DNA of 64,000 bases, from positions 2,880,001 to 2,944,000 of the forward strand of contig OZ241892.1 of assembly GCA_965203485.1 (NCBI GenBank), given 5' to 3'. Under the pieces are notes generated by a model. The model was not told the DNA's origin. It saw nothing but the letters and a program-made list of their open reading frames with translations, and ran no database searches. The first letter of the stretch is position 1, and each line of letters starts with the position of its first letter. Positions 22,872-63,700 of the stretch are shown piece after piece. The translations under genes and the position numbers were made by a program. Origin of the DNA: Longimicrobiales bacterium (lineage in GTDB: Bacteria > Gemmatimonadota > Gemmatimonadetes > Longimicrobiales > Gaopeijiaceae).

Positions 22872-22950
22872 CGGCGGGGGCTCACGGGTCGGGACAGTCG
22901 ATTGCGGCGTCCGGCGAACCTGCGGACTGCCGAACTCAGGGACGGGCAGT

Positions 22951-22979
22951 ATCCTAACGTTCCGAAAGAAGCGCGGCAA
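22951..22979 (-). promoter_or_regulatory. Putative sigma70 promoter for the ATPase/DUF3226 pair
   Basis: Minus strand TTGCCG-N17-TAGGAT. Confidence 0.4.
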
Positions 22980-45249: not shown

Positions 45250-48200
45250 ATGGCAGTTCCGACCATCTTCGAGACCTGTCAGCCCAGGGACGACGTGCTG
45301 GCGGGCGTCGCCGACGCGGACTTCGCCGCCGACCTGGCGCAGGTCGTCACCAAGAGGGGCAGCGCGGAGTACCACGACCCGGTACGCTTCTTCGCCAACA
45401 CCTATCCCACGCGCGGGCTCAAGAACCTGCTGAGCAACGTGTGTCGGCGGCTGTCCGGGGTCGGCGGCGACGCGGCCTCGATCTTCCGCCTCGACACGTC
45501 CTACGGCGGGGGCAAGACGCACGGGCTCGTCGCGCTGGCCCACGCCGCTCGCGGGCTCGACGGCGTGGAGAACCCCGGCGAGTTCGTGGAGCCGGCCGTC
45601 CTCCCCGAGGAAGCCGTTCGCGTGGCGGCTTTCGACGGAGAGAACGCCGACCCCGCCAACGGCCGCAGCATGGGCGAGGGCCTGCTGGCCTACACTCCCT
45701 GGGGCGAGCTCGCGTATGCTCTGGGCGGCCATGCGGGCTACGAGCGGGTCCGCGAGAGCGACAGGCGCGGCATGGCCCCCGGCGCCGACACCTTGCGCGA
45801 GCTGTTCGACGGACGGCCCGCCCTGCTGTTGCTGGACGAGCTGTCGGTCTACCTGCGCAAGGTGCACGACGTCGAAGGTGCCCGCGACCAGTTGACCGCG
45901 TTCCTCACGTCGCTGTTCAAGGCCGTGGAAAGCACGCCGAACACCGCGCTCGTGTACACGCTGGCCGTCGGCAAGGGCGGGCAAGCCTCCGACGCCTACG
46001 CCGACGAGAACAGCTTCATCGCCGACCGGATGCAGGAGGCCGAGAAGGTCTCCGCCCGCAAGGCCACCCTGCTCAACCCGACCGAGCAGGACGAGACCGT
46101 CCACGTCCTGCGCAGACGCCTCTTCAAGTCCATCGACGAGAGCCGGGCCGCCGAAGTCGCGTCCGCCTACGCAGAACTGTGGAAGGCCCACAAGGACGCC
46201 CTGGCGCCCGACGCAACCCGGCCCGAGACCCGGCAGATGCTGGCCGACGGCTACCCCTTCCATCCCGAGGTCCTGGAGACCCTCACCGACAAGACCGCGA
46301 CGCTGGAGACCTTCCAGCGCGTCCGTGGAATGCTGCGGCTGCTCGCCCGCACGATCCGCCGCCTGTGGGACACCCGGCCAAGCGACGCCACCGCCGTCCA
46401 CCTCCACCACGTCGACCCGGGCCACGAGCCCATCCGCCAAGAGATCGTCACGCGCCTGGGCCAGTCCGCCTACGATCCCGCCATCAACGCCGACGTGTCC
46501 GCCGGCACGTCCGACAAGAAGTCGCTCGCCCAGCAGATCGACGGCGAACACCACCGCGGACTGCCCCCGTACGCGGAATACGCCGCCCGGACGATCTTCT
46601 TTCACACGCTGGCGTTCAACGAACCGCTCAAGGGCGTCGCGCCTGCGGAGCTGCGCTACTCGATAGTGGGCCCGGCGCTGGACATCAGCTTCGTGGAAGA
46701 GGCGCGCAAGAAGTTCGTCGCCGAGTCCGCCTATCTGGACGACCGGCCGGGCGCGCCGATGCGCTTCCTGGCGGAGGCCAACCTCACGCAGGTCGTCCGC
46801 CGCGAGGAGCGCAACGTGGACGCGGAGGACGTGCGGGCGCAACTCAACGACCGCATCCGACAGATCTTCGGGGGAGACACGCTGGAGGCCGTGTGCTTCC
46901 CCGGCGGTCCCCACGACGTTGCCGACGAGGCGGGCGAGAGCCGTCCCAAGCTGGTGCTGCTGTCGTACGACGCCGTGGCGCTTCATGGGACGGTCGACGG
47001 CGTTCCGGCCCTGATCGACCGAATCTACTCGCGCAAGGGCTCGGACGGCTCGGCGCTCCGACTGTTCCGCAACAATGTTGTATTCGTGGCGGCCGACGAG
47101 TCGCGCCGCGAGGAGATGCGGGCCAAGGTCCGGCGCCTGCTGGCGTTGCGGGAACTCAAGAAGCCGGAGCGGCTGGAAGACCTAGCGGAGCACCAGCAGG
47201 CCAAGGTGCAAGAGTGGGGGGAGCGCTCGGAAGCGGAGCTGGCCGTGTCGATTCAGCAGTGCTATCGCCACGTCTTCTACCCCTCGCGCAACAGGATCGG
47301 CGAAAGCATGGTCGAGCTGGCGCACACGGCCATCGACGTGCCCGCCTCTTCCGAAAGGCCGGGAGCCGGGCAACGGCAGATCGTCGCCGTGCTGCGAAAC
47401 CTGAACAAGCTGCGACTCGCCGACGACGCGCCCGACTCCGCGACTTACGTGCGGGACCGCACGCCGCTTCGCAAGGGAGAGATGACGACGCGCGCCCTCC
47501 GCAACGAGTTCAGTCGCGACCCCACCCTGCCCATTCTGGTGGGCGACGACACCTTCGTGCGCGGCGTCCGCGCCGGGGTCGAGCAGGGCGACTACGTGTA
47601 CCGGAGCGGGGACCTGCTCTACGGTCCGGGCGACCCGGCCGCGACGATTCGGATCGACGAGCAGTCGGTCGTGCTCACGATGGCCTACGCAAAGAACATG
47701 GGCGTGTGGCCCCGGCCGGGGGAGAAGCCGCAGGAGGCCGGCGAGGCAAAGGAGGCCCAGAGGCCCGAGGACCAGGACCCAGGGCGTGCTGGAGATCGAG
47801 CCCGCCGACCGGACGGCGCTCCGGAAGGCCGCGGCGAACCGTCGGCCGGTACGCTCGAGGTCGAGGCCCCCTTCCGGGAGGCGGTGGTCCGCGTGTGGGA
47901 GAAAGCACGCGACACGGGCTGGCGGAGGATCAAGAAGCTGGGCATCCGGGTGTTCGAGGCGGACGAGGCGCTCCGCGTCATGAGCGTCGTGGGCTCCCTG
48001 CCGGGCGCGGCCAAGACGGTCGCACTGGAGGGAGGCTACGAGACGCGCGACGGGGGCTCGCTGGAGTTGGAGTTCACCGGGCCGATCGAGGACGCCGATC
48101 CGGTGAAGGAGTTCCTCCAGTCCCAGATGCGAGCGGCGACGCGCACGAGCCTGACCGTCCGCTACGAGCTGACCTTCGAGGCCGGCTTGACCACCGACGA

Positions 48201-48288
48201 GGACGGCCCGAAGATGATCATCGAGCGGCTGTCCCGGTTCGTGAGCGGATCGACGGTCGTGTCGGCTACCGGAATGGAGGAGGGCTGA
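45250..48288 (+). CDS. DUF499 family AAA+ ATPase
   Basis: CQPRDDV, FAADL, FFANTYPT, LDTSYGGGKTH (Walker A), LLLDEL (Walker B), YPFHPE and FQRVRGMLRLLA. Confidence 0.88.
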   Translation: MAVPTIFETCQPRDDVLAGVADADFAADLAQVVTKRGSAEYHDPVRFFANTYPTRGLKNLLSNVCRRLSGVGGDAASIFRLDTSYGGGKTHGLVALAHAARGLDGVENPGEFVEPAVLPEEAVRVAAFDGENADPANGRSMGEGLLAYTPWGELAYALGGHAGYERVRESDRRGMAPGADTLRELFDGRPALLLLDELSVYLRKVHDVEGARDQLTAFLTSLFKAVESTPNTALVYTLAVGKGGQASDAYADENSFIADRMQEAEKVSARKATLLNPTEQDETVHVLRRRLFKSIDESRAAEVASAYAELWKAHKDALAPDATRPETRQMLADGYPFHPEVLETLTDKTATLETFQRVRGMLRLLARTIRRLWDTRPSDATAVHLHHVDPGHEPIRQEIVTRLGQSAYDPAINADVSAGTSDKKSLAQQIDGEHHRGLPPYAEYAARTIFFHTLAFNEPLKGVAPAELRYSIVGPALDISFVEEARKKFVAESAYLDDRPGAPMRFLAEANLTQVVRREERNVDAEDVRAQLNDRIRQIFGGDTLEAVCFPGGPHDVADEAGESRPKLVLLSYDAVALHGTVDGVPALIDRIYSRKGSDGSALRLFRNNVVFVAADESRREEMRAKVRRLLALRELKKPERLEDLAEHQQAKVQEWGERSEAELAVSIQQCYRHVFYPSRNRIGESMVELAHTAIDVPASSERPGAGQRQIVAVLRNLNKLRLADDAPDSATYVRDRTPLRKGEMTTRALRNEFSRDPTLPILVGDDTFVRGVRAGVEQGDYVYRSGDLLYGPGDPAATIRIDEQSVVLTMAYAKNMGVWPRPGEKPQEAGEAKEAQRPEDQDPGRAGDRARRPDGAPEGRGEPSAGTLEVEAPFREAVVRVWEKARDTGWRRIKKLGIRVFEADEALRVMSVVGSLPGAAKTVALEGGYETRDGGSLELEFTGPIEDADPVKEFLQSQMRAATRTSLTVRYELTFEAGLTTDEDGPKMIIERLSRFVSGSTVVSATGMEEG

Positions 48289-48289
48289 C

Positions 48290-48772
48290 GTGGCGAGACC
48301 AGACCGAACTTCCCCTACCGCTTTCCCCTTGTCCGCGCCCCAATACGAGCTTCGCGCAAGGAGCCGTGGACCGGGCCTCGCCGAGTACGAGATCTGGCAG
48401 CTTCCGGCGCCCGCCACGCCCCACGTGACCCGCTCCGTCCGGATCGCCGGGCTACGCGGCCGCAACCTGGACCTGGTCGAACACCGCGTCCTCCGTCGCT
48501 TGGCCCGCGGCGGCGTCAAGCTCCTCTCGCGGACGACCCGCGAACGCCGCGCCTACCCCCTCTCGGAGGACTTGGCCCTCTCGATTGGTCTGCTCTTCCG
48601 TTGCCTAGCGCCGATGCGGCACCGCGACCGAATGATCGCCGTTGCGGAGGGCGTGGACGCCATGGAGCGCGAAGAGGCCGGCTACTGGCTGGGCATGGCG
48701 ATGCATCGTCGGAACCCCAGGCGGGTGCTGATGGCATTGCGGTGCCTGCTGACGGAAGCGGCACGGAAGTAG
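48290..48772 (+). CDS. Small protein of the DUF499 system (DUF3780-like positional equivalent)
   Basis: Starts 1 nt after the DUF499 stop; C-terminal EEAGYWLGMA..RVLMALRCLL loosely resembles the DUF3780 EERWWL..WRKALR motif. Confidence 0.55.
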   Translation: MARPDRTSPTAFPLSAPQYELRARSRGPGLAEYEIWQLPAPATPHVTRSVRIAGLRGRNLDLVEHRVLRRLARGGVKLLSRTTRERRAYPLSEDLALSIGLLFRCLAPMRHRDRMIAVAEGVDAMEREEAGYWLGMAMHRRNPRRVLMALRCLLTEAARK

Positions 48773-48776: not shown

Positions 48777-49394
48777 ATGCGGGCGGACACAGCAGGCAAC
48801 ACAATGACCACGTTGCCAGTTTCCACCGCCATTCGAATTGCGAACAGGGCCCGTAATCCAAGCACTGCTGGTACTGATGTATACCGGGTGCCCTTCCTGG
48901 ACGTGGGTCTCAGGATTCCCGATGAGTCGGACACGCCTTTCCGTACAGCTGCACCTCTTTTCTCCTCCGGTGCCCCGAAGGGATCCTCAACGCACCAGAA
49001 TATGAATAGCGAACGTATCCACTTGTCCCTGCCATTGCTTGATCCCGTGTTCCCGGTGAGCGGCACAAGCTTTGTGGCCTTGCAGGAATGGGAAGGCTAT
49101 GTCATCGCGATCAACGACGACGGCTTCGAGGCACGGCTATTGGACTTGACAGCCAGGGCAAAGCGCGAGGAAGAAGAAGCGACGATACCGTACAGCGAGA
49201 TTTCTGAGGAGGAACGAACCGAGATGCGCCTGGGCAACATTTTCCGTTGGACGATTGGGTATGAGTCGACTCCGAGTGGGACGAGGCGGAGGATATCGCA
49301 GATTGTCTTCCGGAATCTTCCCGTTGTGACGCAGAGGGATGCCGACGAGGCATGGGAATGGGCACTTGAGACTCGGCAGTTCCTCGGGCTTTGA
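48777..49394 (+). CDS. Hypothetical protein with a beta-rich C-terminal domain
   Basis: ORF starts 4 nt after the previous stop; globular C-terminal part LQEWEGYV..FEARLLDL..IFRWTIGY..SQIVFR; start uncertain. Confidence 0.65.
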   Translation: MRADTAGNTMTTLPVSTAIRIANRARNPSTAGTDVYRVPFLDVGLRIPDESDTPFRTAAPLFSSGAPKGSSTHQNMNSERIHLSLPLLDPVFPVSGTSFVALQEWEGYVIAINDDGFEARLLDLTARAKREEEEATIPYSEISEEERTEMRLGNIFRWTIGYESTPSGTRRRISQIVFRNLPVVTQRDADEAWEWALETRQFLGL

Positions 49395-49581: not shown

Positions 49582-50856
49582 ATGATCCGCCGAGTTCAGG
49601 CCCTGAACTATCGTTGCCTCCGGTACGTCGACCTGTCGCTGGACCGGTTCCACGTGCTGGTGGGACCCAACGCCAGCGGCAAGAGTACGCTGTTCGACGT
49701 GGTGGCATTCCTGGGCGAGATGATACGCGAGGGCGTTGGCGCAGCCATAGAACGGCGAACCGAGAACTTTCAAGACTTGATCTGGAATAGGCGGAAGGGC
49801 AACATGGGTTTCGAGCTGGCCGTCGAGTTCGAAGTGCCCGACAACATCAAGGAGCGGCTACCCCGGAAGAAGGGCTATCGCGTCTTCCGCTACGAGATAG
49901 CGATTCGGGAGTCCGACGACGGCTGGACAATCGATTCCGAGCGCGGGCTGTTGATGCCGGAACCCCATGGGCTTTGTTCCGCTTCCTCGCAGGTGTCTCT
50001 TTTTCCCGATCCGCCTTCACCGCCACGCACAATCTTGGCCGGAGGCGGCCGTCCCGGTCGCCGTACGATCTTGAGCAAGTCCCCCGAAGGAACGGACAGG
50101 TTCAATATTGAGACTTCGGACGATCCCGGCAAAGGTTGGGTTACGAGCATAGCTTTTGGCCCAAAGCGCTCGACGCTTCGCAACCTTCCCGAATCGCCGG
50201 ACAAGTTTCCCATGGCGTCCTACGCAAAAACTCTGCTTGGCGGTGGCATTGACCTCATGTTTCTCGACAGCAAGAAAATGCGTCTTCCGAGCTCTCCGCA
50301 CTCGAATCGCAAACGACTGTCTTCCGACGGCCACAACCTGCATCGGCTTATTCATGAATTGAAGACTGCGAACGAGGAAGTCTATCGAGAATGGCTTGAA
50401 CATGTCCAGACTGTCCTGGAAGACCTCGACGATGTTCGAATGGTGGACCAAGAATACGATCGCAGCGTCTACCTGACTCTCGTGTACGATACCGGCTTGG
50501 AAGTCCCGTCGTGGATGGTGTCGGACGGCACCCTGCGTTTTCTTGCGATGACGCTGATTCCGTACCTGTCACAGCAGGGACAAGTGTACTTGCTGGAAGA
50601 GCCGGAGAACGGGGTACATCCGCTGGCGCTGGACGCGGTGTATTCATCCCTGTCGTCGGCATACGAGTCTCAGGTATTGGTAGCCACGCATTCACCTTCC
50701 TTCCTGTCGTTGGCGTCTCCAGAGGACATTCTTTGTTTTGCGAAGAGCGAAGAGGGCGCAACCGATGTCGTCAAGGGCAACGACCATCCCATGCTCAGAG
50801 AATGGCAAGAGGGTGCCGACAACGGGTTGTTGTTTGCCAAAGGCGTGATCGGATGA
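49582..50856 (+). CDS. ABC/AAA ATPase, MADS MAD3-like
   Basis: MIRRVQALNYRCLRYV..FHVLVGPNASGKST, SDGTLRFL, LLEEPENGVHP and VATHSP. Confidence 0.8.
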   Translation: MIRRVQALNYRCLRYVDLSLDRFHVLVGPNASGKSTLFDVVAFLGEMIREGVGAAIERRTENFQDLIWNRRKGNMGFELAVEFEVPDNIKERLPRKKGYRVFRYEIAIRESDDGWTIDSERGLLMPEPHGLCSASSQVSLFPDPPSPPRTILAGGGRPGRRTILSKSPEGTDRFNIETSDDPGKGWVTSIAFGPKRSTLRNLPESPDKFPMASYAKTLLGGGIDLMFLDSKKMRLPSSPHSNRKRLSSDGHNLHRLIHELKTANEEVYREWLEHVQTVLEDLDDVRMVDQEYDRSVYLTLVYDTGLEVPSWMVSDGTLRFLAMTLIPYLSQQGQVYLLEEPENGVHPLALDAVYSSLSSAYESQVLVATHSPSFLSLASPEDILCFAKSEEGATDVVKGNDHPMLREWQEGADNGLLFAKGVIG

Positions 50857-51485
50857 CCGATCAGCCATGCTCGCGGGACTTGCTTGCCTTGGTTGCGGAC
50901 GCGGACATGCGGGAAGTCATGCGCGGTGTGCTGGGAAGGAGCGACGGAGTTGCGGCTGGTCGATTGGATTTCGACGTCCAGGTGCATCCCCAGAGAGACG
51001 GGGGATGCCGAACTGGAGCCGCAACGTATCTGCGCCCTTACCTCAATAGGTTTCGCTATTGCATGGTGGTCTTCGATAGGTACGGATGCGGCAGTCGCAA
51101 TTCGCGTGAAGACATCCAGCGATCTGTCGAAAGCGAGCTCGCCCGCAACGGTTGGGACGATCGAGCCAAGGTCATCGTCATCGAGCCGGAGCTCGAAGCG
51201 TGGATATGGGGCGACCTCAAGGCCGCATCCAGGCAGGTCGGTTGGCCGGGCGATCACACGGCGTTGCGCGAACGGCTGGCGGCCGAAGGCCATTGGCCAC
51301 GCGGTCAGGACAAGCCTGAGGACCCCAAACGGGCGATGAGGGAGGCGATGTCGCGTTCTCCTCTTCGACCCAGGCGTTCGGCCAGGGTCTTTCGCAAGAT
51401 TGCCGACTCTGCTCGGTTCGACGGCTGTCGCGATGCGGCGTTCAACGAACTCCGTGCTACGCTGGTGAAGTGGTTTTCCGGCTGA
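50853..51485 (+). CDS. MADS MAD4-like / DUF4276-like TOPRIM-fold protein
   Basis: DLLALVAD.DM, VHPQRDGGC, VVFDRYGCG, VIEPELEAWIW, KPEDPK and FNELRATLVKWF; ATGA overlap with the ATPase. Confidence 0.7.
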   Translation: MTDQPCSRDLLALVADADMREVMRGVLGRSDGVAAGRLDFDVQVHPQRDGGCRTGAATYLRPYLNRFRYCMVVFDRYGCGSRNSREDIQRSVESELARNGWDDRAKVIVIEPELEAWIWGDLKAASRQVGWPGDHTALRERLAAEGHWPRGQDKPEDPKRAMREAMSRSPLRPRRSARVFRKIADSARFDGCRDAAFNELRATLVKWFSG

Positions 51486-51675: not shown

Positions 51676-52128
51676 GTGGACCAGACCCGAGATGACCAGC
51701 GGTCCGGCGCGGAGCAACCGGCCGACTTCATCGTCGCCCATCGGCGACATCGAGAAGACGGCAATCTGCTCTGCGATCATGACAGGTTGGCCAACGCCGC
51801 GTACTTGTTCGGTTTCAGCGCAGAGTGCGGACTGAAGGCCGTAATGCAGGCACTCGAGTGGATGCCTTTGGACACCAAAGGCGTGCCTCGGCAACCCGAG
51901 CACCGCCAACACATCCAGGCGATATGGCCGCTCTACGCGGATCTGGCCCGTGACCGCAATGGGGCACGATACCGCCTTGCTTCTGAGGATCCATTTCACG
52001 ACTGGTCGCACCATCATCGCTACGCCGCCGGCGAGCATGTGAGTTCAGAGGCAGTGGGCCGGTACCGCGAGGCGACCAAGGCCGTCGCTCGCATCCTGTA
52101 CCTCGCGAGAGTGGACGGCAAGCTATGA
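51676..52128 (+). CDS. HEPN-like protein
   Basis: Helical A.YLFGFSAECGLKA motif, a conserved-looking His (RQHI) and W.HHHRY; GTG start after GGAGG. Confidence 0.6.
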   Translation: MDQTRDDQRSGAEQPADFIVAHRRHREDGNLLCDHDRLANAAYLFGFSAECGLKAVMQALEWMPLDTKGVPRQPEHRQHIQAIWPLYADLARDRNGARYRLASEDPFHDWSHHHRYAAGEHVSSEAVGRYREATKAVARILYLARVDGKL

Positions 52129-53393
52129 AGGACGACTTCGTTTCGTTCGACAGCGTAAGCCAGCGAGTCCAAGCGATTCTAGAGTCCATGGATTTGGTTG
52201 CGCTCCAGGGAATCGACGTCTACCTCGTTCGAAACCTCCATGGCAAGGTACGGATCATCGCCGACGAACCGGCTAACGAATCCATTCGGGCCGCACTAGC
52301 GGACTTGGCGACGCGGTTGAGTCATGCGCTGGGCGCCCACGGTCATCCTCCAAACGCATCCCTGCTGACGCTCGACATCTCTGCATCCGACCTTCTCGGT
52401 TCTTCCTCTAGGACAATATCGGAAGGCGTGTTCTGGGTTGACCGCATGGTGACAAGCAACGAATGGGCGTCCGTCCACACGCCGGCCTTGCAGAACAACC
52501 GATATACGCTTTTTTCGGTCAAAGGCGGAGTAGGGAGAAGCACCACGGCTATCGTTCTCGCCTGGCACTTGGCCCGTCAGGGAGAAAGGGTCTTGGTCGT
52601 GGATCTGGACATGGAATCTCCGGGTCTGGGCTCGTCCGTTCTGGATCACGGCACCCATCCCGAGTTCGGAATCGTGGACTGGTTCGTAGAGGACTTGGTC
52701 GGCCAGAGCCGTCATGTCGTCGAGCAGATGACGGGAGCACCGATCTGGGCACGCGATCTTGAAGGGGCCGTCACGGTCGTTCCCGCACACGGACGTGACC
52801 CCGGCGAATACTTGGCGAAGCTCGGGAGGGTGTACCTGGACACGGACATCTGCTGGACGGAACGGATCAACAGCATGATAACGCAACTCGAGGCGGCATG
52901 GCGACCAACCATGGTGCTCATCGAGAGTCGAAGCGGCTTGCACGACATCGCCGCATCGACCGTCACCGATCTTGGCGCCGACATCTTGCTCTTCACAACT
53001 GACTCCGAGAGTTCATGGACCGGCCACGAGATCCTTTTTGCACATTGGCGTGCTCACAAACTGGCCGAGGCCATGAGAAACCGGCTGTTCATCGTGTCCG
53101 CCCTGACCCCGGAGATCGGCACGGAACAGTACCTTGCGCGATTTTCGGAGCGGTCCTGGAACTTGTTTCGCGACCACCTCTACGACGATGTCGAACCGAT
53201 GCACGCCGACGGCGGTTTTTCTTTCGATCTGCACGACGTTGCTGCTCCTCATAGCCCATTTCCAATCTACTGGAACCGCGGCATGGCTGCCGGAACCTCC
53301 CTGCGCGACATCAACGCGGTGCCCGTGAAGCTTGCGTATTCCGATTTTCTGTCGTCGTTCGACAACCAGCTTCGTCCGGCAACGACTCGATGA
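52125..53393 (+). CDS. ParA/MinD-like ATPase with KGGVGR variant Walker A
   Basis: FSVKGGVGRST, VLVVDLDMESPGL and LIESRSG; N-terminal extra domain (VRNLHGKVR); ATGA overlap with the HEPN gene. Confidence 0.8.
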   Translation: MKDDFVSFDSVSQRVQAILESMDLVALQGIDVYLVRNLHGKVRIIADEPANESIRAALADLATRLSHALGAHGHPPNASLLTLDISASDLLGSSSRTISEGVFWVDRMVTSNEWASVHTPALQNNRYTLFSVKGGVGRSTTAIVLAWHLARQGERVLVVDLDMESPGLGSSVLDHGTHPEFGIVDWFVEDLVGQSRHVVEQMTGAPIWARDLEGAVTVVPAHGRDPGEYLAKLGRVYLDTDICWTERINSMITQLEAAWRPTMVLIESRSGLHDIAASTVTDLGADILLFTTDSESSWTGHEILFAHWRAHKLAEAMRNRLFIVSALTPEIGTEQYLARFSERSWNLFRDHLYDDVEPMHADGGFSFDLHDVAAPHSPFPIYWNRGMAAGTSLRDINAVPVKLAYSDFLSSFDNQLRPATTR

Positions 53394-54841
53394 CTCGCGC
53401 CCGAGTCTTTCGCCAAGCACTTGTCGGCTTGCCAGATGACACGTCTCATGGTGAGGCCGATTTGCCGGTCGCCAACGTCTACCTGCCTCGGTCTCACCTC
53501 AAGGCGATGGATCCGGACGCATCGGTCGTGGTCGGCATGCGAGGTGCAGGCAAGACGTTCTGGTGGAAAGCTCTTCAAGACAAAAACGTCCGGCTTCTCG
53601 TGGGGAAGAGCGAGCATTCGCGATTGACCGATACCACCGAAGTGAAGCTTGGGTTCGGAGTCAGTGCAGCTCTCGAAGATTATCCGAGCAAAGATGTGTT
53701 GGGAAACCTATTGGCAGACGACGTCGACCCTCGCCTTGTTTGGCGAACTGTCTTGGCTCGGCATCTGTCGCCAAGCGATGCTCCTCTTAGGCAGTTGGGT
53801 AACTGGCGGGAACGATGTGACTACACCAAACGGCAGGCGGAGGAGATCGACGTACTGTTGCGTCGACAGGACAGCGATCTAGATCAAAGCGGGACATACC
53901 TGCTGATACTGTTTGACGCCTTGGATCGGTGTGCTGATGGATGGCAGGACATGTATCGGTTGATCCGAGGGTTGATGCAACTCGCTTCGGACATGCGTTC
54001 GTACAGACGACTACGTGTGAAGGCCTTTTTGCGAACGGATCAAGTTGAGGACGCCAGCATTAGGACTTTTCCAGATGCGTCGAAACTCTTGTCGTCCCGT
54101 GCCGAACTTAACTGGCCACCGAATGAACTGTACGGTCTCCTTTGGCACCTGCTTGCCAATGGTTCCGCGGGAAACGAGACGCGGCCTCTTCTGATAGGGG
54201 AGAACTGGCGTTCGACCACATTGCAAGGACAGATCGTATTCGCCGTGCCGAGAACACTTGTCTTTTCCGAGCAAGATCAACGCGACACGTTTCATGACAT
54301 TGCTGGGCCTTGGATGGGCAGGGACCGGCGGCGGGGGTTTCCCTACACATGGATACCCAACCATTTGGCGGATACCGAAGGAAAGGTAAGTCCTCGTTCG
54401 TTTCTCAAGGCACTGAGAACCGCCGCTATCAATACTGGCGAGCGACATCCAGAACACGAACACGCCCTTCACTTCGACAGCATCAAGCTGGGTGTTCAGG
54501 AGGCTTCCAAGATTCGTGTTGACGAGTTTCGGGAGGACTATCCATGGGTGCACCGCATGTTGACGGCCTTGGAGGGCATGGTCGTGCCCTGCTCCTTTGA
54601 CGAGATCGAACAACGGTGGCAGGAACGGGACGTGTTCTCGCAGTTGCGCAATGACACTTCACAGGACGCCGTCAAATTGAGGCCGCGCCAAATCGAGCGC
54701 GGAGCTCAAGGCGTGCGTGAAGACCTAGAGGCATTGAGCATATTTCAGCGGCTACTTGACGGCCGCGTCAACATTCCCGACGTGTTCAGGGTCGGCTACG
54801 GCCTGGGACGGCGGGGTGGCGTCAAACCTGTACGAGGCTAG
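53390..54841 (+). CDS. P-loop NTPase (STAND/KAP-like) of unknown function
   Basis: VVGMRGAGKT (Walker A), LILFDALD (Walker B), FLRTD, SPRSFL and C-terminal NIPDVFRVGYGL; ATGA overlap. Confidence 0.75.
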   Translation: MTRARVFRQALVGLPDDTSHGEADLPVANVYLPRSHLKAMDPDASVVVGMRGAGKTFWWKALQDKNVRLLVGKSEHSRLTDTTEVKLGFGVSAALEDYPSKDVLGNLLADDVDPRLVWRTVLARHLSPSDAPLRQLGNWRERCDYTKRQAEEIDVLLRRQDSDLDQSGTYLLILFDALDRCADGWQDMYRLIRGLMQLASDMRSYRRLRVKAFLRTDQVEDASIRTFPDASKLLSSRAELNWPPNELYGLLWHLLANGSAGNETRPLLIGENWRSTTLQGQIVFAVPRTLVFSEQDQRDTFHDIAGPWMGRDRRRGFPYTWIPNHLADTEGKVSPRSFLKALRTAAINTGERHPEHEHALHFDSIKLGVQEASKIRVDEFREDYPWVHRMLTALEGMVVPCSFDEIEQRWQERDVFSQLRNDTSQDAVKLRPRQIERGAQGVREDLEALSIFQRLLDGRVNIPDVFRVGYGLGRRGGVKPVRG

Positions 54842-55002: not shown

Positions 55003-55749
55003 ATGACCGTCTCTGATGGCACGAAGAACATCCTCGCCATGAGGAGCGGAAACAGATGCGCACTGCCCGGTTGCGACCAGGCATTGGCATTTGATTCCGA
55101 TAACGGATCAGTGCTGACTGTCGGAGAAGCCGCTCACATTGCGGGGCGTCGACCGGGTTCCGCGCGCTACGATCCAGAGATGGACGATCGGGAGCGGGAC
55201 GCCGCCGCGAATCTGGTGTACGTGTGCAGGAACTGTCACAGGCGCATCGATCAAGACGTCGAATTTTATTCCCTAGAGCGGCTATGGGAGATCAAGGCCC
55301 ACCACGAAGCCAAGGTCAAGGCCGCGATGGACGCCGCGTTTGCGATCGTAGGATTCGCTGAATTACAAGAATTGGTCGAACATTTTTCTTCAACACCTCC
55401 GACCGCAATCGATTCATCTCTCGTTTTGCTTCCGCCTGACGCCAAGATCAGGAAGAACGATCTCGGTCCTGACTCTCAGCACATTATCACGATGGGACTA
55501 GCTATTTCGTCTACGATTCGAACGTTCGTCAGCCAGATCGAATCCGATGATCCCGACTGGTCTGCGCGCCTCAAGAACGGATTTGTGACCGAATACCTCC
55601 GGTTGCGAAAAGAAGGTCATAGGGGAGACGAACTGTTCGAACTCATGAGCGCCTATTCCACACGTGGCTTTGATCGAGCCACGACCCAGTGTGCCGCGAT
55701 ATCCGTGCTGGTGTACATGTTCGAAGCCTGCGAGGTGTTCGAGCGTTGA
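55003..55749 (+). CDS. Lamassu/ABC-three-component effector: HNH nuclease + C-terminal domain (LmuA-like)
   Basis: SGNRCALPGC, AAHIAG, NLVYVCRNCHRRID (HNH); C-terminal KIRKNDL..GDELF..YMFEACEVFE. Confidence 0.8.
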   Translation: MTVSDGTKNILAMRSGNRCALPGCDQALAFDSDNGSVLTVGEAAHIAGRRPGSARYDPEMDDRERDAAANLVYVCRNCHRRIDQDVEFYSLERLWEIKAHHEAKVKAAMDAAFAIVGFAELQELVEHFSSTPPTAIDSSLVLLPPDAKIRKNDLGPDSQHIITMGLAISSTIRTFVSQIESDDPDWSARLKNGFVTEYLRLRKEGHRGDELFELMSAYSTRGFDRATTQCAAISVLVYMFEACEVFER

Positions 55750-55970
55750 TTCTGCCGACCAAGCATGTGTCAGAGGCGGAGTCTTTGCTGGCGGCCGGTG
55801 CGCTCCTGCTCCATGAATTAGGCCGACCCCGGACCGTAACCGAACTCTGGGAAGCCGTGAGAGGAAACCAGATTGCCTCCTTCGACCGCTTCGTCTTGGC
55901 GGCTGAGTTGCTGTACGCCATCGGCGCCGTGAGCTTCCGGGACGGACTTCTGGAAAAGCACCGGCCATGA
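55746..55970 (+). CDS. ABC-three-component middle component (LmuC-like)
   Basis: 74 aa, TTG start overlapping upstream TGA; ILPTKH..SLL..GA..TVTELWE..FDRFVLA..LLY. Confidence 0.75.
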   Translation: MILPTKHVSEAESLLAAGALLLHELGRPRTVTELWEAVRGNQIASFDRFVLAAELLYAIGAVSFRDGLLEKHRP

Positions 55971-57709
55971 TTCACCGCGTGACCGCCAATCGTCCGTCGT
56001 TTCGATCCGTCGAGTTCGGAGCCGGCCTTAACGTCGTTCTCGCAGATCGAACCGAAGCGTCGACCGACAAGGACACCAGGAACGGTCTTGGCAAGTCCAC
56101 CTTGATCGACATCATTGATTTTTGCTTGGGAGCCCGGGCGCAACGGGGGAAGGGTCTCGTCATCGACTCCCTCGCCGGATGGGAGTTCACGCTTGAGTTC
56201 TCCTTGGGGCGGGAGCGTTTCACGGCGACGCGGGCAGTGGACGCCCCGAACAAGTTCAAGGTCGCCCATCATAGATCGACGGCCGCGCACTCGTCAGACA
56301 CGCTTTTCGGCGACACCGACTACAACCAAACCGACTGGCGCACGCTACTCGGCCAACGCATGTTCGGCCTCGACAACACGGACATCCCCAGGTACGGTCC
56401 ATCGTACCGGAGCTTGCTTTCCTATTTCATTCGCTGTGATGGGGCGGCCTATTTGGAGCCATTTTCCCATCACTCGAAGCAACAATCATGGGACCGGCAG
56501 GTGAATGTCGCGTACATGCTCGGCCTGCACTGGAAAACGGCATCGCAGTTCCAGAATCTCAGGGAAGACGAGAAATCGGTGAAGCAACTCCAAAAGGCCG
56601 CTGACGCCGCGGAAAAGCTTGAAAGAGGGGCCACGGTCGGTGCACTCGAAGCCACAAGGGTGCGCCTGGAGGATCGGTTGAACGCAGAGCTGAACGCGCT
56701 GGACAATTTCAAGGTTCACCCTCAGTACGCATCGATCCAGCAAGAAGCGGACCGACTCACGGCCAAGCTTCACGAACTGACCAACGCGAACGTCGCGGAT
56801 CAGAGGATGCTTAGACGATATCGCGAATCGGTTGACGACAAAGAAAAGCCGCCGAGCGTGTCGGTGATCCGCTTGTACGAAGAGGTCGGAATTGTCTTTT
56901 CGGATGCGGTGCGTCGCACGCTTGCCGATACGAAGCGATTTCGCGACCAGGTCATCGAGAACAGAAAGCAGTTTCTCGCAACTGAGATCAGCAGAATCGA
57001 AACACGAATCGCTGGGCGTGACCGCGAGATTCAAGCATTGACCGAGGAGCGGGCAGATCACCTTCTCGTCTTGAAGACTCACGGTGCGCTGGACGAGGTG
57101 ACCCGTCTTCAGGAGAGAGTTGTCCGCATTCGCGAGAGACTGGAGAGGGTGACCACCTCCATTGACCATCGCAAAGCGCTCGAATCCAAGAAGCGCGAAA
57201 TCAAGACGCAGAAGAACGAACTCGCGCAGGTCGCTCAGCGAGCTCACGAGGAGCGCAGGGCGCTGTGGAGCCGAGCCGTCGCGTTGTTCAACGAAAACTC
57301 GGAGGCGCTGTACGAAGCTCCCGGCGAACTGATCATCGATGTGGGGGACAACGGCTTTTCCTACGACGTGGAGATCGACAAGAGCGGAAGCGACGGCGTG
57401 GACAAGATGAAGATTTTCTGCTTCGACCTGATGCTTCTTCAGTCCCGTCCGGAACGCGAGGGCATCGACTTCCTGATTCACGACAGCATCATCTTCGATG
57501 GAGTGGACTCGCGGCAGAGGGCGCGCGCCCTGGAAAGGGCCAGCGCCGTCGGGAACGTCCTTGGCAAGCAATACATCTGTGCGTTCAACTCCGACATGGT
57601 GCCCCGCGACGACTTCAGCCCGAACTTCGATTTCGACCGCCACGTCAAGCTCCACATCAAAGACGGCGACCCGTCCGGCAGTCTTCTGGGCTTCTCGTTC
57701 AACCGGTGA
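55967..57709 (+). CDS. SMC-like ABC ATPase, DUF2326 (LmuB-like)
   Basis: RNGLGKST Walker A, central coiled coil, SDG..KIFCFDL and FLIHDSIIFDGVDSRQ. Confidence 0.85.
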   Translation: MIHRVTANRPSFRSVEFGAGLNVVLADRTEASTDKDTRNGLGKSTLIDIIDFCLGARAQRGKGLVIDSLAGWEFTLEFSLGRERFTATRAVDAPNKFKVAHHRSTAAHSSDTLFGDTDYNQTDWRTLLGQRMFGLDNTDIPRYGPSYRSLLSYFIRCDGAAYLEPFSHHSKQQSWDRQVNVAYMLGLHWKTASQFQNLREDEKSVKQLQKAADAAEKLERGATVGALEATRVRLEDRLNAELNALDNFKVHPQYASIQQEADRLTAKLHELTNANVADQRMLRRYRESVDDKEKPPSVSVIRLYEEVGIVFSDAVRRTLADTKRFRDQVIENRKQFLATEISRIETRIAGRDREIQALTEERADHLLVLKTHGALDEVTRLQERVVRIRERLERVTTSIDHRKALESKKREIKTQKNELAQVAQRAHEERRALWSRAVALFNENSEALYEAPGELIIDVGDNGFSYDVEIDKSGSDGVDKMKIFCFDLMLLQSRPEREGIDFLIHDSIIFDGVDSRQRARALERASAVGNVLGKQYICAFNSDMVPRDDFSPNFDFDRHVKLHIKDGDPSGSLLGFSFNR

Positions 57710-57791: not shown

Positions 57792-60743
57792 ATGAGCGAC
57801 CGCCGACTGATCGAGGAGTGGTTGCCGATCGGAGAGCTGAGCGAGGAGTCAACCCGCGAACGAAGGTCCATGACCGCGTTGCCGCCCGTGTACTACCTGC
57901 ACGTGTGGTGGGCACGCCGTCCGCTGGTTGCGTCGCGGGCGGTGGTGCTGGGGTCGTTGCTGTCGGCGGATGTGGACCGCGAGCGGTTCTTGCACGTGCT
58001 TGGTATCCACGGGGATCCGGTGACGACTCGACGCCGCATCGACGCCGCAAAGCGAAGTGCCGACGACCTCGGAATAAATCCGTATGGCTACCAGCGTGCG
58101 TTTCTGTATTCGCCTGACGAAGCCGACATGGAGTGGGTCGGCGACGGCGTGTCCTTCGTGGACGCTTTGGATGAGGCTTGGGTGCTTGATCCCACCGCAG
58201 GTGGCGGCAGTATTCCCATGGAGGCCGTTCGCTTCGGGCTTCGGACGGGCGCGAACGACCTTAACCCTGTGGCGGCGATGTTGCTGGAAGCGACGGTGAG
58301 CTGGCCTAGCAAGCATGGGCGCGACATCCGAGAAGAATTTGCTGGGCTGGGTGCCGAGTTTGTCAAACGTGCTGAGACGCGGTACCGCGCGGCGGGGGTG
58401 TTTCCGCCGGAACCGGACGGCATTAGGGTAGTGGCGTATTGTTGGGCGCACACCGTCCGTTGCCCGTACTGCAATGGCTTGGTGCCGCTGTCTCCACACT
58501 GGCGTCTTGCGACGGATGGAACTGGAGTGAGGTTGCGGCCGCGCCTGGGAGACGGCCCCGGCGCCGACGGGCGGAAGTGCGAGTTCGAGATCGTCGGCTC
58601 GGTGACGGAGCAGTCGTCGGGCACGGTGAGTCGCAGCACGGGGATCTGCCCCTATCCGGACTGCGAGCGCGTCGTGGACGGCGGCGAGATCAAGCGGCAG
58701 GCGCGGGAGGGCAGGATGGGCCACCAACTGTACGCAGTCGTGTACAAGAAGCGCGTGCCCCGGTTTCTGAAGTCGGGGAAGCGGGGCAAGGACAAGTGGA
58801 AGCGCGGCTACCGAGCACCGCGTCCGTCGGACGACAATGGCGAGGAGGTGGCGCGACTTCTGGCGGAGAAGTTGCCCGGGTGGGAGGCGCTGGACATCGT
58901 GCCGAGCGAGAGGATACCGGACGGCAGCAAAACGGCGGAGCCCCAACGATACGGCATGCCGTATTGGCGAGACATGTTCTCGCCCCGCCAGCTACTCTGC
59001 CACGGCACCGGCGCGGATGTGTACCGCGAGATGCTCGACGCTGACCACAAGGCGGGCAAGCTCACAGACATCCGCAAGGCGGCCTACGGATACTTGGCGC
59101 TCGCGCTAGATACGATGGTGATCTACAACAATCGAGCTTGTCGATGGGGCGACACGATTGGACGAGTTCGCTCGATCTTCGACAGGCACGACTTCGGCTT
59201 CTGCTGGTCCTACGCCGAGATGGCGCCGCTGGTCACCGGCATCGGCTACGACTGGGCGATCGAAAAGACCGCCAAGTGCATCGGCGAACTCGCCGCACTG
59301 GTGCGCCCGCGCGGGCGGACGGCGAACGACAACTCGATCTTCGGCAGTGTCCGCAGGCCCTCCCACCCCAAGCTCGTCGTCACCTGCAAGTCCGCCGACG
59401 CGCTGGACCACATCGCCGACGGCGAGGTCGACGCCGTCGTCATGGATCCGCCGTACTACGACAACGTCATGTACGCGGAGCTGTCGGACTTCTTCTACGT
59501 ATGGCTCAAGCGGACGGCGGGCTACGTGTTTCCCGAGCTCTTCCGTCGGCGGCTGACGGACAAGGACAACGAAGCCGTCGCGAATCCGGCTCGGCACAGG
59601 GGGGAGAAAGGCGCCAAGGCGCGCGCGGGAAAGGACTACCAGGAGCGCATGGCGGCGATCTTCCGCGAGTGCAGGCGCGTGCTCAAGCCCGGCGGCATCA
59701 TGACGCTGATGTTCACGCACAAGGCGACGGGCGCCTGGGACGCGCTCACCAAGGGGCTGATCGAGGCGGGCTTCAGGATCACGGCGTCGTGGCCGGTCAA
59801 CACGGAGGCGCCGGGCAGCCTTCACATCAAGGACAAGGCGGCGGCCAACAGCACGATCTTTCTCGTGTGCCGTCCGCGGACCGAAGAGGAGGCGGACGAG
59901 GGCGGCGTGTACTGGGAAGACGTGGAGCCGAAGGTCGCGCGCGCCGTTCGCGAGCGCATCGGGGCGTTTCGCGAGGCCGGCATCCGGGGCGTGGACGTCT
60001 ACTTGGCGTCGTTCGGGCCCGCGCTCGAAGAGTTCTCGCGCCACTGGCCGCTTCGGCGCGGCACGCCCCGCAGGCCGGCGACGGTGGAGAAGCGGCGACG
60101 CCCGGCTGGGCTCGAGAAGGAGGAGGACCCCTACGCCGCCACTCCCGAGGACGCGCTCGAGGTCGCCCGCCGGGAAGTGAAGCGGTGGCGCCTCGAGCAG
60201 CTGACCCGCGTCGAGGCGAGCGACGACATGGACGCGCGAACCGCGTTCTTCGTGCTGGCGTGGGACGCGTTCCGGGCGCCCAGGTTCCCCTACGACGAGG
60301 CGCTCAAGCTGGCGCGGGCCGTCGGGGCCGACCTGGACAAGGACGTCGTGGGGCGGACGGCGGCCAAGACGGGCCAGAACCTGGTCCTCTGGGACAGCGG
60401 GGAGCGCGCGGCGAAGGGCGCGCTGGGGCCGGCCGACGGGTCGAAGGGGGTGATCGACGCGGTCCACGGCGCGGCGCACTTGGCGCGCACCCGCTCGCTC
60501 GACGCCGCCCGCGAGCGCTTGGCCGAGCTGGGACTGCACGAGGAGCCCCGCTTCCTGTCGGCGGTCAAGGCATTGCTGGAAGTTCTGCCCGTCTCCGGTT
60601 CCTTCACCGGCTTCGACTTGCCCAAGGGGCTGGCGGCGGCCGGAAGCGACTTCGAGGCCCTCGACAACCTTCGGCGCCTCGCGTTCAGCGAGGAGATCGG
60701 CGAGCCCGAGCAGCTCAAGCTGTGGCGGGACGAAGAAGCCTGA
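57792..60743 (+). CDS. DUF1156 family adenine-specific DNA methyltransferase with Zn-ribbon insert
   Basis: RLIEEWLP, LHVWWARRPL, DPTAGGGSIP (SAM binding), CPYC...CPYPDC and MDPPYYDN (catalytic motif IV). Confidence 0.9.
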   Translation: MSDRRLIEEWLPIGELSEESTRERRSMTALPPVYYLHVWWARRPLVASRAVVLGSLLSADVDRERFLHVLGIHGDPVTTRRRIDAAKRSADDLGINPYGYQRAFLYSPDEADMEWVGDGVSFVDALDEAWVLDPTAGGGSIPMEAVRFGLRTGANDLNPVAAMLLEATVSWPSKHGRDIREEFAGLGAEFVKRAETRYRAAGVFPPEPDGIRVVAYCWAHTVRCPYCNGLVPLSPHWRLATDGTGVRLRPRLGDGPGADGRKCEFEIVGSVTEQSSGTVSRSTGICPYPDCERVVDGGEIKRQAREGRMGHQLYAVVYKKRVPRFLKSGKRGKDKWKRGYRAPRPSDDNGEEVARLLAEKLPGWEALDIVPSERIPDGSKTAEPQRYGMPYWRDMFSPRQLLCHGTGADVYREMLDADHKAGKLTDIRKAAYGYLALALDTMVIYNNRACRWGDTIGRVRSIFDRHDFGFCWSYAEMAPLVTGIGYDWAIEKTAKCIGELAALVRPRGRTANDNSIFGSVRRPSHPKLVVTCKSADALDHIADGEVDAVVMDPPYYDNVMYAELSDFFYVWLKRTAGYVFPELFRRRLTDKDNEAVANPARHRGEKGAKARAGKDYQERMAAIFRECRRVLKPGGIMTLMFTHKATGAWDALTKGLIEAGFRITASWPVNTEAPGSLHIKDKAAANSTIFLVCRPRTEEEADEGGVYWEDVEPKVARAVRERIGAFREAGIRGVDVYLASFGPALEEFSRHWPLRRGTPRRPATVEKRRRPAGLEKEEDPYAATPEDALEVARREVKRWRLEQLTRVEASDDMDARTAFFVLAWDAFRAPRFPYDEALKLARAVGADLDKDVVGRTAAKTGQNLVLWDSGERAAKGALGPADGSKGVIDAVHGAAHLARTRSLDAARERLAELGLHEEPRFLSAVKALLEVLPVSGSFTGFDLPKGLAAAGSDFEALDNLRRLAFSEEIGEPEQLKLWRDEEA

Positions 60744-60745
60744 CA

Positions 60746-63700
60746 GTGCTGGCGGGACGCAAGTGGATGCGACGCTACACGCCGGACGACGGCGATCTGG
60801 TCAAGCTGTTCTACGTGCCTGCGCTGGAGGACGCCGTCCGCTACGACCGGTCGACCGGATACTTCAACGCGGGCGCGCTGGAGCTGGCGGCGCGGGGCAT
60901 CGAAGGGCTGGTGCGCAACGGGGGCGTGATGCGCATGGTCGTCGGCTGCACGCTCGCGCAGGACGAGATCGAGGCGATCGCGCGGGGCGAACGGCTCCGC
61001 GACGCGGTGCGGCAACGCTTGGCCGACGCGCCCTTGGCGCCGGACGCGAAGGGGAGGGACGCCCTGGAGCTGTTGGCGTGGATGGTCGCCCACGAGCATC
61101 TGGAAGTGAAGGTGGCGGTGCCGTGCGATGCCGCGCGCAATCCCGTGGCCGACGAAGCCATCTTCCACGAGAAGACCGGCGTCGTCGAGGACCGGGCCGG
61201 CGACCGCATCGCCTGGACGGGCAGCTTGAACGAGACGGCCGCCGGATGGACCCGCAACTGGGAGCGCATCCACGTCTACACGAGCTGGGGAGACGCGGAG
61301 CGAGTCGCCGACGCGAAGGTCGACTTCGACGCGTTGTGGGGCGACAACGCTCGCCGCCTCATCGTGCTTGGTCTGCCCGACGCGATTCGCCTGGACCTGC
61401 TGCGCTTCCTCCCCGAGGACGACCGCCTGCCCGCCCGGCTGCAAGAACACGAGAAGGCGCACACGTATCCCGAGCCGCGGCCGCCGCCCGCCATCACGCC
61501 CGAACCCGGCGACGCCGCCCGGGAGCGGCCGCCACACGTCCTCCCCGACCGCGAGCACGTCTTCCGGGACCGCGTATGGTCCTTCATCGAGCAGGCCCCT
61601 TCGATGCCCAGCGGCGGAAGGCGCGTCGGCGAGGCGACTTCGGCGGTCGAGCCTTGGCCGCACCAAGTTCGCGCCTTCGACCGCATGTACGACAGCTGGC
61701 CGCCCAGGCTCCTCATCGCCGACGAGGTCGGGCTCGGCAAGACGATTCAGGCGGGCCTGCTGCTTCGGCAAGCATGGCTGGCCGGGCGCGCCAAGCGCAT
61801 CTTCGTCCTGGCGCCCAAGGCCGTGCTGCGTCAGTGGCAGATCGAGCTGCGCGAGAAGTTCAACCTCAACTGGCCCGTCTACGACAAGGGCGAGCTGACG
61901 TGGCATCCGTCGCCGGCTTGGCGGGGCGGCAACGTTCGGCGGGTGGACGACGACCGTTGGCACGAGGAGCCGGCCGTCATCGCGTCCAGCCATCTGATGC
62001 GCCGAAGGGACCGGCGCCAAGCGTTGTTGGAGGACGCGGCGCCCTGGGACTTGATCGTGCTCGACGAAGCCCACCATGCCCGCCGCAGCGGGGTTGCCGG
62101 TGCAACGGGCGGCCACCCGAACACGCTGCTTCGCCTCATGCAGGGGCTCAAGGAGCGCACGGACGCGCTGGTGCTGCTGACCGCGACTCCGTTGCAGGTC
62201 CATCCCACTGAACTCTGGGACCTGCTCGACTTGCTCGGGCTGCCCCCCGAGTGGACGCCGACGGCGTTCGTCGAATTCTTCCAGAACGCCGGCCGGGCCG
62301 ACCCGACCCCTGAAGCATTCGAGCAGATGGCGCAACTGTTCCAGGCGACGGAGCGGCGCTACGGGAAGGCGGGCGAAGCCGAAATCGCCCGGGCGCTCGA
62401 TGGGCTGTCGCGACTGCGGGCCAGAAGTGTGGCGCGCGCCTTGCGAGACGGCGCTGCGACACCGCGGCTGTTGCTGGACGGCGAGGCTCGGCAGGCTGCG
62501 CTTCGGCTGTTGCGGGTGAGCACGCCGGTTCGCCGGCTGGTGTCGCGCCATACGCGGGAGCTGCTCCGGGAGTACCGTCGGTGCGGCCTCCTGCCGGCGC
62601 GCATCGCCGACCGCGACGTGGACGACCGCTTCGTCGAAATGACCGAAGGCGAGCGCGCCTTGTACGAAGCCGTGGAGGACTACATCGCGACGACGTACAA
62701 GCAAGCGTCCGAGGACGAGCGGCGGGCCGTCGGCTTCGTGATGACGATCTACCGGCGGCGGCTCGCCAGCAGCTTCCAGGCGTTGCGCAACACGTTGCAG
62801 AGGCGGGTGGACGCCGACGCGACCGTTGCCGCTTCATCGGACGCGGCCCTGGAGGAGGATTTCTCCGACGACGAGGTGAGCGACGAGCCGGCCCAGGACG
62901 AAGACGCCGTGGCGGAGGCGTTGCGGGAATCGCTTCGAGCGGAGGAGGAAGACGACATCCGGCGGTTGCTCGACCAGATCGGCCGGTTGCCGCCCGACAG
63001 CAAGCTGGCGGCGCTCAAGGACGTGCTCCGCGACCTGCGCGACGACGGGCATCGCCAAGTGATGGTCTTCACCCAGTACACCGACACGATGGACTTCCTG
63101 CGCGACGAGCTGTCCACAGGCGCCGGGGCCGCCCTGATGTGCTACTCGGGGCGCGGCGGCGAGATCCCCGGTGCCGACGGCTGGCGTCCCGTCGATCGCG
63201 ACACCGTCAAGCGGCACTTCCGGGACGGCGACGCCGAAGTCCTGCTCTGCACCGAAGCCGCCGCCGAAGGGCTCAACTTCCAGTTCTGCGGCGCCTTGGT
63301 CAACTACGACATGCCGTGGAACCCGATGCGCGTGGAGCAACGCATCGGCCGCATAGACCGCGTGGGCCAGAAGCACCCGGCGATCCGCATCGTGAACCTC
63401 CACTACGAAGACACGGTCGAGACCGACATCTACCGCGTGCTGCGGGAGCGCATCGGCCTGTTCACCAAGATGGTGGGCCGCCTCCAGCCGATTCTTTCGC
63501 AACTGCCCGGAACAATCACCGACGCAGTGCTGACCGGCAAGGGAGCGGACGCCGCTGGACGACGCCAGATGGCCACGGCGGTCGAAGCCCGGACAACGGA
63601 GGCGGCCGACGGCGCGTTCGACATCGACGCCGCCCTGGACGACGTGCTGGACGCTCCCCCTCGCCCGGAGCCCCCGGCGACCATGAACGACCTGGACCGC

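Follow-up and report, generated by a model that had tools for sequence, protein, structure and literature searches.

What are the three overlapping genes at positions 51,676 to 54,841 of a 64,000-nucleotide stretch of a Longimicrobiales bacterium genome (contig OZ241892.1, positions 2,880,001 to 2,944,000, referred to here as the window), and do they form a defence system that has not been described before? A sequence-only reading of this DNA had proposed that the genes, here called A, B and C, encode a HEPN protein, a ParA/MinD-type ATPase and a second P-loop nucleoside triphosphatase (NTPase), and that the triad is a candidate for an undescribed defence system. The system is known already: it is catalogued as PDC-M28 and has been described as HINPO, and the triad adds one more member.

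The assignment to PDC-M28 was made from model matches on adjacent genes in order (PADLOC-DB v2.0.0). Gene A matches PDC-M28A (E = 2.9e-37, model positions 3–136 of 138), gene B matches PDC-M28B (E = 2.1e-127, 3–433 of 438) and gene C matches PDC-M28C (E = 1.3e-170, 3–479 of 480). All three matches are thus nearly full length, and there is no structural difference between the triad and PDC-M28. The PDC set comprises 145 predicted systems embedded in BREX, DISARM or type I restriction-modification systems, which were put into PADLOC for future study, and the name M28 does not appear in the main text of the paper that reported it (Payne et al. 2024, 10.1101/2024.01.29.577857).

The same architecture is described under the name HINPO by Li, Burroughs and Aravind (bioRxiv 10.64898/2026.10.19.760177), in sections that are computational. 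As set out in that preprint, HINPO has an upstream HEPN of a new kind, a ParA of the ConB2 clade with a fast-evolving inactive nucleotidyltransferase domain (iNTase), and a downstream ORC-CDC6/STAND NTPase that is sometimes fused to the ParA. The triad shares with HINPO the upstream HEPN fold, the ConB2-type ParA with a fast-evolving N-terminal domain, a downstream NTPase that is probably of the ORC-CDC6/STAND kind, and the fusion variant among its relatives. The preprint states that HINPO is enriched in multicellular bacteria, whereas the Longimicrobiales host is not evidently multicellular. Because neither PDC nor PADLOC occurs in the main text of the preprint, the equation of HINPO with PDC-M28 rests on architecture; we infer it from this likeness, not from a comparison of member sequences. 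On these grounds the triad is very likely to be a member of the HINPO/PDC-M28 family. Since all three genes match a named system in full, the claim of an undescribed system is refuted. The accompanying statement that the system is not validated still stands: our literature search, which omits most subscription journals, found no experimental test of PDC-M28 or HINPO. It returned a single preprint under the name HINPO, no paper naming PDC-M28, none on Sll1717 and none on a MinD-like ATPase with HEPN in an anti-phage context. PDC-M28 is also absent from the eight PADLOC candidates that the available text of a cold-seep study lists as tested (PMC12881386).

The layout of the triad agrees with what had been read from the letters. 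The three genes lie on the same strand and are joined by ATGA overlaps at 52125–52128 and 53390–53393, with 190 bp between the triad and the end of a MAD4-like gene upstream (51485) and 161 bp between it and the ATG of an HNH gene downstream (55003). The quoted motifs are present, namely AECGLKA, H79 and R115-Y116 in gene A, KGGVGRS in gene B and GMRGAGKT in gene C. The GTG start of gene A is supported by a GGAGG 7 nt 5' of it and by two homologues, each exactly 150 residues long, which span gene A fully. The proposal that the triad is lower in GC content than its flanks holds in part: the values for A, B and C (0.63, 0.59 and 0.56) are below that of the window (0.67) and those of the genes of the surrounding system described below (0.67–0.70), but they are not lower than those of the adjacent genes (0.55–0.62; MAD3 0.57, HNH 0.55, ABC ATPase 0.58). 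The low GC content extends over a whole insert, at approximately 48.8–57.7 kb. A scan for promoters and terminators did not rise above chance (1 found where 0.9 were expected, and 2 where 3.2 were).

The three-gene order is conserved far beyond chance. After removal of duplicates and of the window's own locus there were 103 distinct loci, 10 of which were too short on one side, leaving 93 that could be judged. The order A-B-C is found in 89 of these; three have B and C without A, and one has a truncated A with B and no C. Gene A is directly 5' of gene B in 90 of the 93. Full fusions of B and C account for 61 of the 63 gene C homologues longer than 846 residues. By inspection, the copies of B and C that lack A adjoin sulfite reductase-like genes (L040/L086), purF (L042) and a BrxC-like gene (L010).

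Gene B was found in 8 of 301 genomes of a phylum sample, the window's own genome included, and the 12 genes that flank the triad in the window are all absent from the fetched stretch of six relatives from the phylum search and from that of the closest named locus (L001, from a Longimicrobiales metagenome-assembled genome). These figures mark the triad as a patchy, widely conserved mobile cassette. The complete triad is present at 13 loci on viral contigs from IMG/VR (L091–L103), and gene B occurs on 16 plasmid records, two of which were inspected and carry all three genes. One copy of the triad is that of Tistrella mobilis pTM2 (WP_014753239.1, WP_041607369.1 and WP_014753241.1). A search of 50,697 GenBank phage records (E ≤ 1e-20) gave no homologue of gene B.

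Gene A has no Pfam or NCBIfam match. Its AlphaFold2 model, built with 109 sequences, is all-helical with a pLDDT of 90.2. The top structural matches among 48,161 chains searched with VIA-align were 1ufb (Z 12.8, root-mean-square deviation (rmsd) 2.7, 114 residues aligned), the sacsin HEPN 3o10 (12.5), 2hsb (12.2), 4nqf (11.6) and 1wol (11.4), with Z falling to 5.0 at rank 50, where it should be noted that helical bundles may score Z of about 13 through arrangement alone. Four of these five have HEPN in their title, and we take 1ufb to be a HEPN protein. HEPN entries also come first in Foldseek (4nqf, probability 1.00, E 0.07), where their E values of 0.07–1.0 are none of them significant singly. 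The HEPN fold proposed for gene A is thus borne out by the top rows of VIA-align (Z 11.4–12.8) and by the order in Foldseek. Judged on the model, gene A appears closest to the HEPN-T clade, and its best folds are nucleotidyltransferase-associated HEPNs. The gene A family comprises 1037 clusters at 50% identity. Two of the homologues (P0067 and P0073) carry the NCBI name 'SAM-dependent methyltransferase', which the all-helical HEPN model contradicts and which is apparently a mis-annotation. One further protein, P0321 (425 residues), carries a Fic-like domain, whose motif was recognised by eye, on the N-terminal side of its gene A-type HEPN domain.

Whether such a HEPN could act as a ribonuclease (RNase) depends on its active site. 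Conservation was assessed in a distant set of 120 sequences, consisting of gene A and those 119 of 149 new search matches that were 125–170 residues long. The near-invariant positions are R24, H25, D28, E50-x3-K54, H79, W110 and R115-Y116, with counts of 117/120 for H79, 111/115 for R115, 120/120 for E50 and 119/120 for K54. Two observations weigh against a conventional RNase. Of the 115 distant homologues that have a residue at R115, just 20 show the canonical Rx4-6H motif, and where His is found at position 130 in 93 of 117 sequences, the window's gene A has Tyr. Gene A itself does contain R115-x5-H121, and H121 is common to 65 of 119 close homologues. According to Anantharaman 2013 (PMC3710099, as far as its text on this clade goes), the motif His is missing from HEPN-T proteins such as 2hsb, where an N-terminal His together with a basic residue may form an alternative site. 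This alternative pattern, in which an N-terminal His is accompanied by the motif Arg and Ex3[KR], fits gene A at H79, R115, E50 and K54. The conservation of H79 and R115 therefore agrees with the alternative site described there, which makes RNase activity of gene A plausible on sequence grounds.

The same data can be read in the opposite direction, with gene A as a catalytically dead HEPN that would serve as a sensor or adaptor and bind RNA or nucleotides, in a defence system where the ATPases do the harm. This would account for the scarcity of the canonical motif; the best structural matches include the sacsin HEPN and HEPN-T proteins, several proteins without the motif may act non-catalytically (as discussed in PMC3710099), and Pfam and NCBIfam scans showed no further nuclease domain in B or C. 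However, H79, R115, R24, H25, D28, E50 and K54 are each present in at least 94% of the aligned distant homologues, as expected of an alternative active site, and we consider a dead HEPN improbable.

Gene B is a ParA/MinD-type ATPase with Arg in its Walker A motif, as had been proposed: it passes the NCBIfam model NF047398 (AAA_KGGVGR) with 171.7 bits against a cut-off of 90, and contains KGGVGRS. The HINPO preprint recognises the ConB2 clade by three marks (10.64898/2026.10.19.760177): an Arg that replaces the second Walker A Lys, a PG that follows the sensor-1 DxD, and the PriB2 Ser before Walker A. Gene B carries these marks, in the motifs FSVKGGVGRS (S131-x-KGGVGRS) and DLDMESPG (D160-x-D162, P166-G167). 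The Arg is present in 110 of 110 loci where the motif was found, a count that includes duplicates and a viral scan in which the motif was the search pattern. The Walker B region is ESRSG as against DxRxG in most homologues; this Glu for Asp occurs in 8 of the 110 loci, the window included, and distinguishes the lineage of the triad from HINPO as described. A housekeeping ParA or MinD of the ParABS or MinCDE type is ruled out by the Arg in Walker A, by scores far under the cut-off for the ParA and MinD equivalog models, and by the absence of any ParB or MinE partner among the 15 proteins scanned at 41.5–64 kb, an absence which the sequence-only reading had also reported.

That reading had overlooked a further domain of approximately 110 residues at the N-terminus of gene B. 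This domain has a mean column identity of 29% in an 88-sequence alignment, in which R36 and W114 are invariant, and its model is compact with a pLDDT of 87.6. The preprint assigns the domain an iNTase fold, whereas our model gave weak structural matches alone. These include the minimal nucleotidyltransferase (MNT) chains 1wot (Z 4.4, rmsd 3.4, 88 residues aligned), 1no5 (Z 3.9, 86 aligned) and 5yep_A (Z 3.5, 83 aligned), which are among the rows with the longest alignments. Against a nucleotidyltransferase fold, the best Z of any match is 4.9 (none reaches 5), the MNT rows tie with unrelated folds, and hhalign of the domain against 24 MNTs gave 0.4%, the same as the controls. Foldseek returned nothing for the domain, a profile search of PDB sequences returned nothing significant, the ESM Atlas gave no usable match for residues 1–120, and Pfam gave scattered chance matches alone.

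Gene C contains Walker A GMRGAGKT and Walker B LILFDALD, and the elements GxRGxGK, FDALD, FxRxD and SPRSF are kept in at least 90% of 73 gene C sequences. It is indeed a P-loop NTPase unrelated to gene B, as had been stated: the profile probability of B against C is 0.55%. The NCBIfam model NF047389 (Sll1717 family) gives 67.5 bits, below its cut-off of 75, and matches 8 of 8 members. There are weak matches to NACHT, nSTAND5 and AAA_16, and the neighbours in the ESM Atlas include clusters of ORC-CDC6-like (13% of members), Sll1717 and nSTAND1 (19%) proteins. With hhalign, gene C against five PF24389 (ORC-CDC6-like) members gave a probability of 70.9% (E 3.8e-5) over the Walker A region alone, compared with 0.1% for a reversed control; a profile search of PDB sequences gave nothing significant. 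The weak NACHT and nSTAND matches, the Atlas neighbours and the profile match over the Walker A region together point to gene C belonging to the STAND/ORC-CDC6 clade. The protein P0453 (1285 residues, Magnetococcales) joins a gene C-type NTPase to a metallophosphoesterase and a NACHT domain and has no ParA part.

The surroundings of the triad bear on its function. A defence context had been noted on both sides, and this is confirmed, with a MAD3/MAD4-like pair upstream and a PDC-M68 module downstream. The sequence-only reading had missed a larger system that encloses the triad together with its two flanking modules: all three lie between the DUF499–DUF7680 genes and the DUF1156 methyltransferase and PLD/SNF2 helicase genes. 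The features are collected in the table.

Table. Features of the triad and its surroundings, in window coordinates.
Feature	Positions	Strand	Details
Gene A: HEPN-fold protein; PDC-M28A; corresponds to PA-HEPN1 of HINPO; putative toxin/effector	51676..52128	+	150 aa, GTG start
Gene B: ParA/MinD-family SIMIBI ATPase, KGGVGR/ConB2 type; PDC-M28B	52125..53393	+	422 aa
Gene B N-terminal domain, ~residues 1–112 ('iNTase' of the HINPO preprint)	52125..52460	+	fast-evolving alpha/beta, RD[L]xGR motif
Gene C: STAND/ORC-CDC6-like P-loop NTPase, related to Sll1717 family; PDC-M28C	53390..54841	+	483 aa
Host system, 5' half: DUF499 ATPase and DUF7680 gene (DUF499-centred BREX-related/Hma-like)	45250..48772	+	PF04465 1.5e-40, PADLOC HmaC 2e-98, PF24728 3.2e-41
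ABC ATPase and partner (MAD3/MAD4-like, HEC-01-like)	49582..51485	+	NF047739 436 bits (cut-off 420), NF047734 197 bits (cut-off 160), HEC-01A/B matches
ABC three-component (Lamassu-like) module: HNH-CTD10, MC6 and ABC ATPase (PDC-M68)	55003..57709	+	PDC-M68A 1.1e-78, PDC-M68B 3.4e-199, PF20293 MC6 6.5e-14
Host system, 3' half: DUF1156 methyltransferase and PLD-SNF2 helicase	57792..63955	+	PF06634, HmaB 5.9e-69, NF042964 1.3e-107, PADLOC PLD_Helicase 1.3e-77

The type 2 DUF499-centred BREX-related system is given in PMC12839542, in its account of that type, as a DUF499 ATPase, an N6-methyltransferase, an HKD/PLD-helicase and a stand-alone DUF3780 gene. The host locus shares the first three of these and differs in its small gene, which is DUF7680 rather than DUF3780. 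It is a DUF499-centred BREX-related system, of the kind that others call Hma, and is closest to type 2.

For the neighbourhoods of other copies, 27 of the 103 loci, chosen by hand and with long flanks, were scanned, taking no more than two crudely called genes per side (94 proteins in all) and a PADLOC threshold of E ≤ 1e-40; the result is a descriptive count, made without a control or a test for enrichment. A defence neighbour is present at nine of the 27 loci (ten have a PADLOC match, one of which, a cysteine desulfurase, was discounted). At five (L003, L025, L060, L068 and L085) core genes belonging to a single BREX or DUF1156/PLD system stand on either side of the triad, and at two of these the triad splits pglX, lying between the N- and C-terminal halves of this BREX gene (L060:4085-9942 and L085:2445-10000). 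The remaining loci count against a defence role: 17 have no PADLOC neighbour at this threshold, and one more has the cysteine desulfurase match alone.

A different reading is that the cassette is not anti-phage at all but a selfish, addiction-type toxin-antitoxin or stress-dormancy cassette which accumulates in insertion hotspots. The 17 loci without a PADLOC neighbour fit this explanation, as does the presence of the triad on plasmids and viral contigs, and many copies adjoin housekeeping genes (formamidase and urea transport on a Tistrella plasmid, besides the purF and sulfite reductase neighbours seen by inspection). STAND-type NTPases with HEPN partners, on the other hand, are typical of defence. 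Mere accumulation is likewise hard to square with the repeated position of the triad amid the core genes of BREX and DUF499 systems, and of nine tested candidates embedded in Hma, seven proved active, as reported in the text of 10.1101/2024.01.29.577857. We therefore consider an addiction cassette quite unlikely, and conclude that the cassette probably has an anti-phage or anti-plasmid defence role, often inserting inside DNA-modification defence operons.

How might such a cassette work? In the mechanism that we favour, B and C would work as a single ATPase unit, in keeping with their frequent fusion and overlapping genes. Gene C, as a STAND/ORC-CDC6-like protein, may sense invader DNA or protein, and would then switch or oligomerise the ParA-type ATPase B. 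This switching would release or activate the HEPN protein A, which may otherwise be kept inactive by the degenerate nucleotidyltransferase-like N-terminal domain of B, much like an MNT antitoxin. Once free, A could stop translation by cutting or binding RNA at the non-canonical site of H79 and R115, for which the fold and the conservation speak, and the cell would become dormant or undergo abortive infection, so that the cassette would back up the restriction-like system around it. Taken as a whole, from sensing by C through switching by B to arrest of translation by A, this chain of events is possible, and we hold it tentatively, at a little short of an even chance. The 'two-NTPase switch controlling an RNase' that had been proposed from the sequence is plausible but unproven: the canonical HEPN motif is not conserved in the family and the HINPO preprint, in its discussion of the system, sees the HEPN as a backup effector. 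It also counts against the favoured mechanism that no phenotype, RNase activity or binding is reported in any paper found.

The preprint treats the N-terminal domain as a nucleotide sensor and the HEPN as the backup, and proposes a different division of labour, in which C senses invader DNA and nucleates multimers of the ParA-type ATPase B that coat or block the invader genome (10.64898/2026.10.19.760177, in its part on HINPO). Gene B would then be the primary effector and the HEPN a backup killer. Several observations suit this model: fusion of B and C is common, B and C persist without A in three of the 93 loci with the N-terminal domain of B still kept, and the same genome holds a second KGGVGR ATPase with neither A nor C beside it. 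The last two also count against the favoured mechanism. Against the multimer model, A is kept in 90 of the 93 loci with near-invariant polar residues, more than is expected of a dispensable backup, and we regard this model as rather unlikely.

The second KGGVGR ATPase deserves a description of its own. It lies at G000:C1:3090022-3091467 (L127:8022-9467, minus strand; also L116), scores 151 bits, above the cut-off, and shows a weak match to the N-terminal domain of gene B (E 0.006). It sits between SNF2 helicase and DUF1156 methyltransferase genes, with cytosine-methylase-like and GHKL-ATPase-like open reading frames (ORFs) between, as judged by inspection. This marks a second BREX-related locus, which may hold a HINPO remnant.

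Related systems offer a narrower version of the favoured mechanism. HEPN-MNT toxin-antitoxin pairs of the HEPN-T clade resemble the triad in the best folds of gene A and in the MNT chains that appear among the longest-aligned weak matches of the gene B N-terminal domain. They differ in that the nucleotidyltransferase-like domain of the triad lacks the GS...DxD signature of the MNT sequences compared and is fused to a ParA, and in that there is a third partner, an ATPase. Because a HEPN-T-like protein is here paired with a degenerate nucleotidyltransferase-like domain, A and the N-terminal domain of B may be a captured HEPN-MNT pair. The dead nucleotidyltransferase would hold the HEPN back purely by contact, governed by two unrelated ATPases acting one after the other, first a STAND/ORC-CDC6 sensor and then a ParA switch with Arg in Walker A, and the HEPN would cut RNA through H79 and R115. 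We put this forward as a doubtful reading which, if true, would be an unusual route from a toxin-antitoxin module to a gated immune effector; the term MNT does not occur in the main text of the HINPO preprint (10.64898/2026.10.19.760177).

Two further systems likewise combine a HEPN gene with a ParA-like ATPase: the MAE_18760-family HEPN and ParA/Soj dyad, proposed as a toxin-antitoxin pair (Anantharaman 2013, PMC3710099), and ParA-HeH-HEPN (ConB1), an anti-phage anticodon nuclease according to work cited in 10.64898/2026.10.19.760177. As described in those texts, both are without an ORC-CDC6/STAND third gene or an iNTase domain, and ParA-HeH falls in the ConB1 branch of ParA rather than in ConB2.

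Three other stretches of the window were noted. Within the defence insert, a low-GC ORF of 205 residues at 48777–49394 has no Pfam, NCBIfam or PADLOC match. At 42791–44824 there is a UvrD helicase gene with a PADLOC match to GajB (3.4e-199), with no GajA gene seen beside it and with an Rpn/YhgA-like gene upstream at approximately 41547–42524. On the minus strand at 21199–22979, a low-GC (0.53–0.56) block of two genes adjoins a dnaE2-like gene and encodes, by inspection, an ABC/AAA_21-like ATPase and a TOPRIM-like small protein; it is probably another ATPase-nuclease defence pair.

As a discovery the locus is modest, given that the system had been catalogued twice before. Tying PDC-M28 to HINPO nevertheless gives the family its models, a domain anatomy and a ready set of mutants. 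If defence activity were found, the validated immune switches would gain a ParA-type ATPase whose Walker A carries Arg, and the finding would be a test of whether HEPN-T proteins that lack the canonical motif act as RNases.

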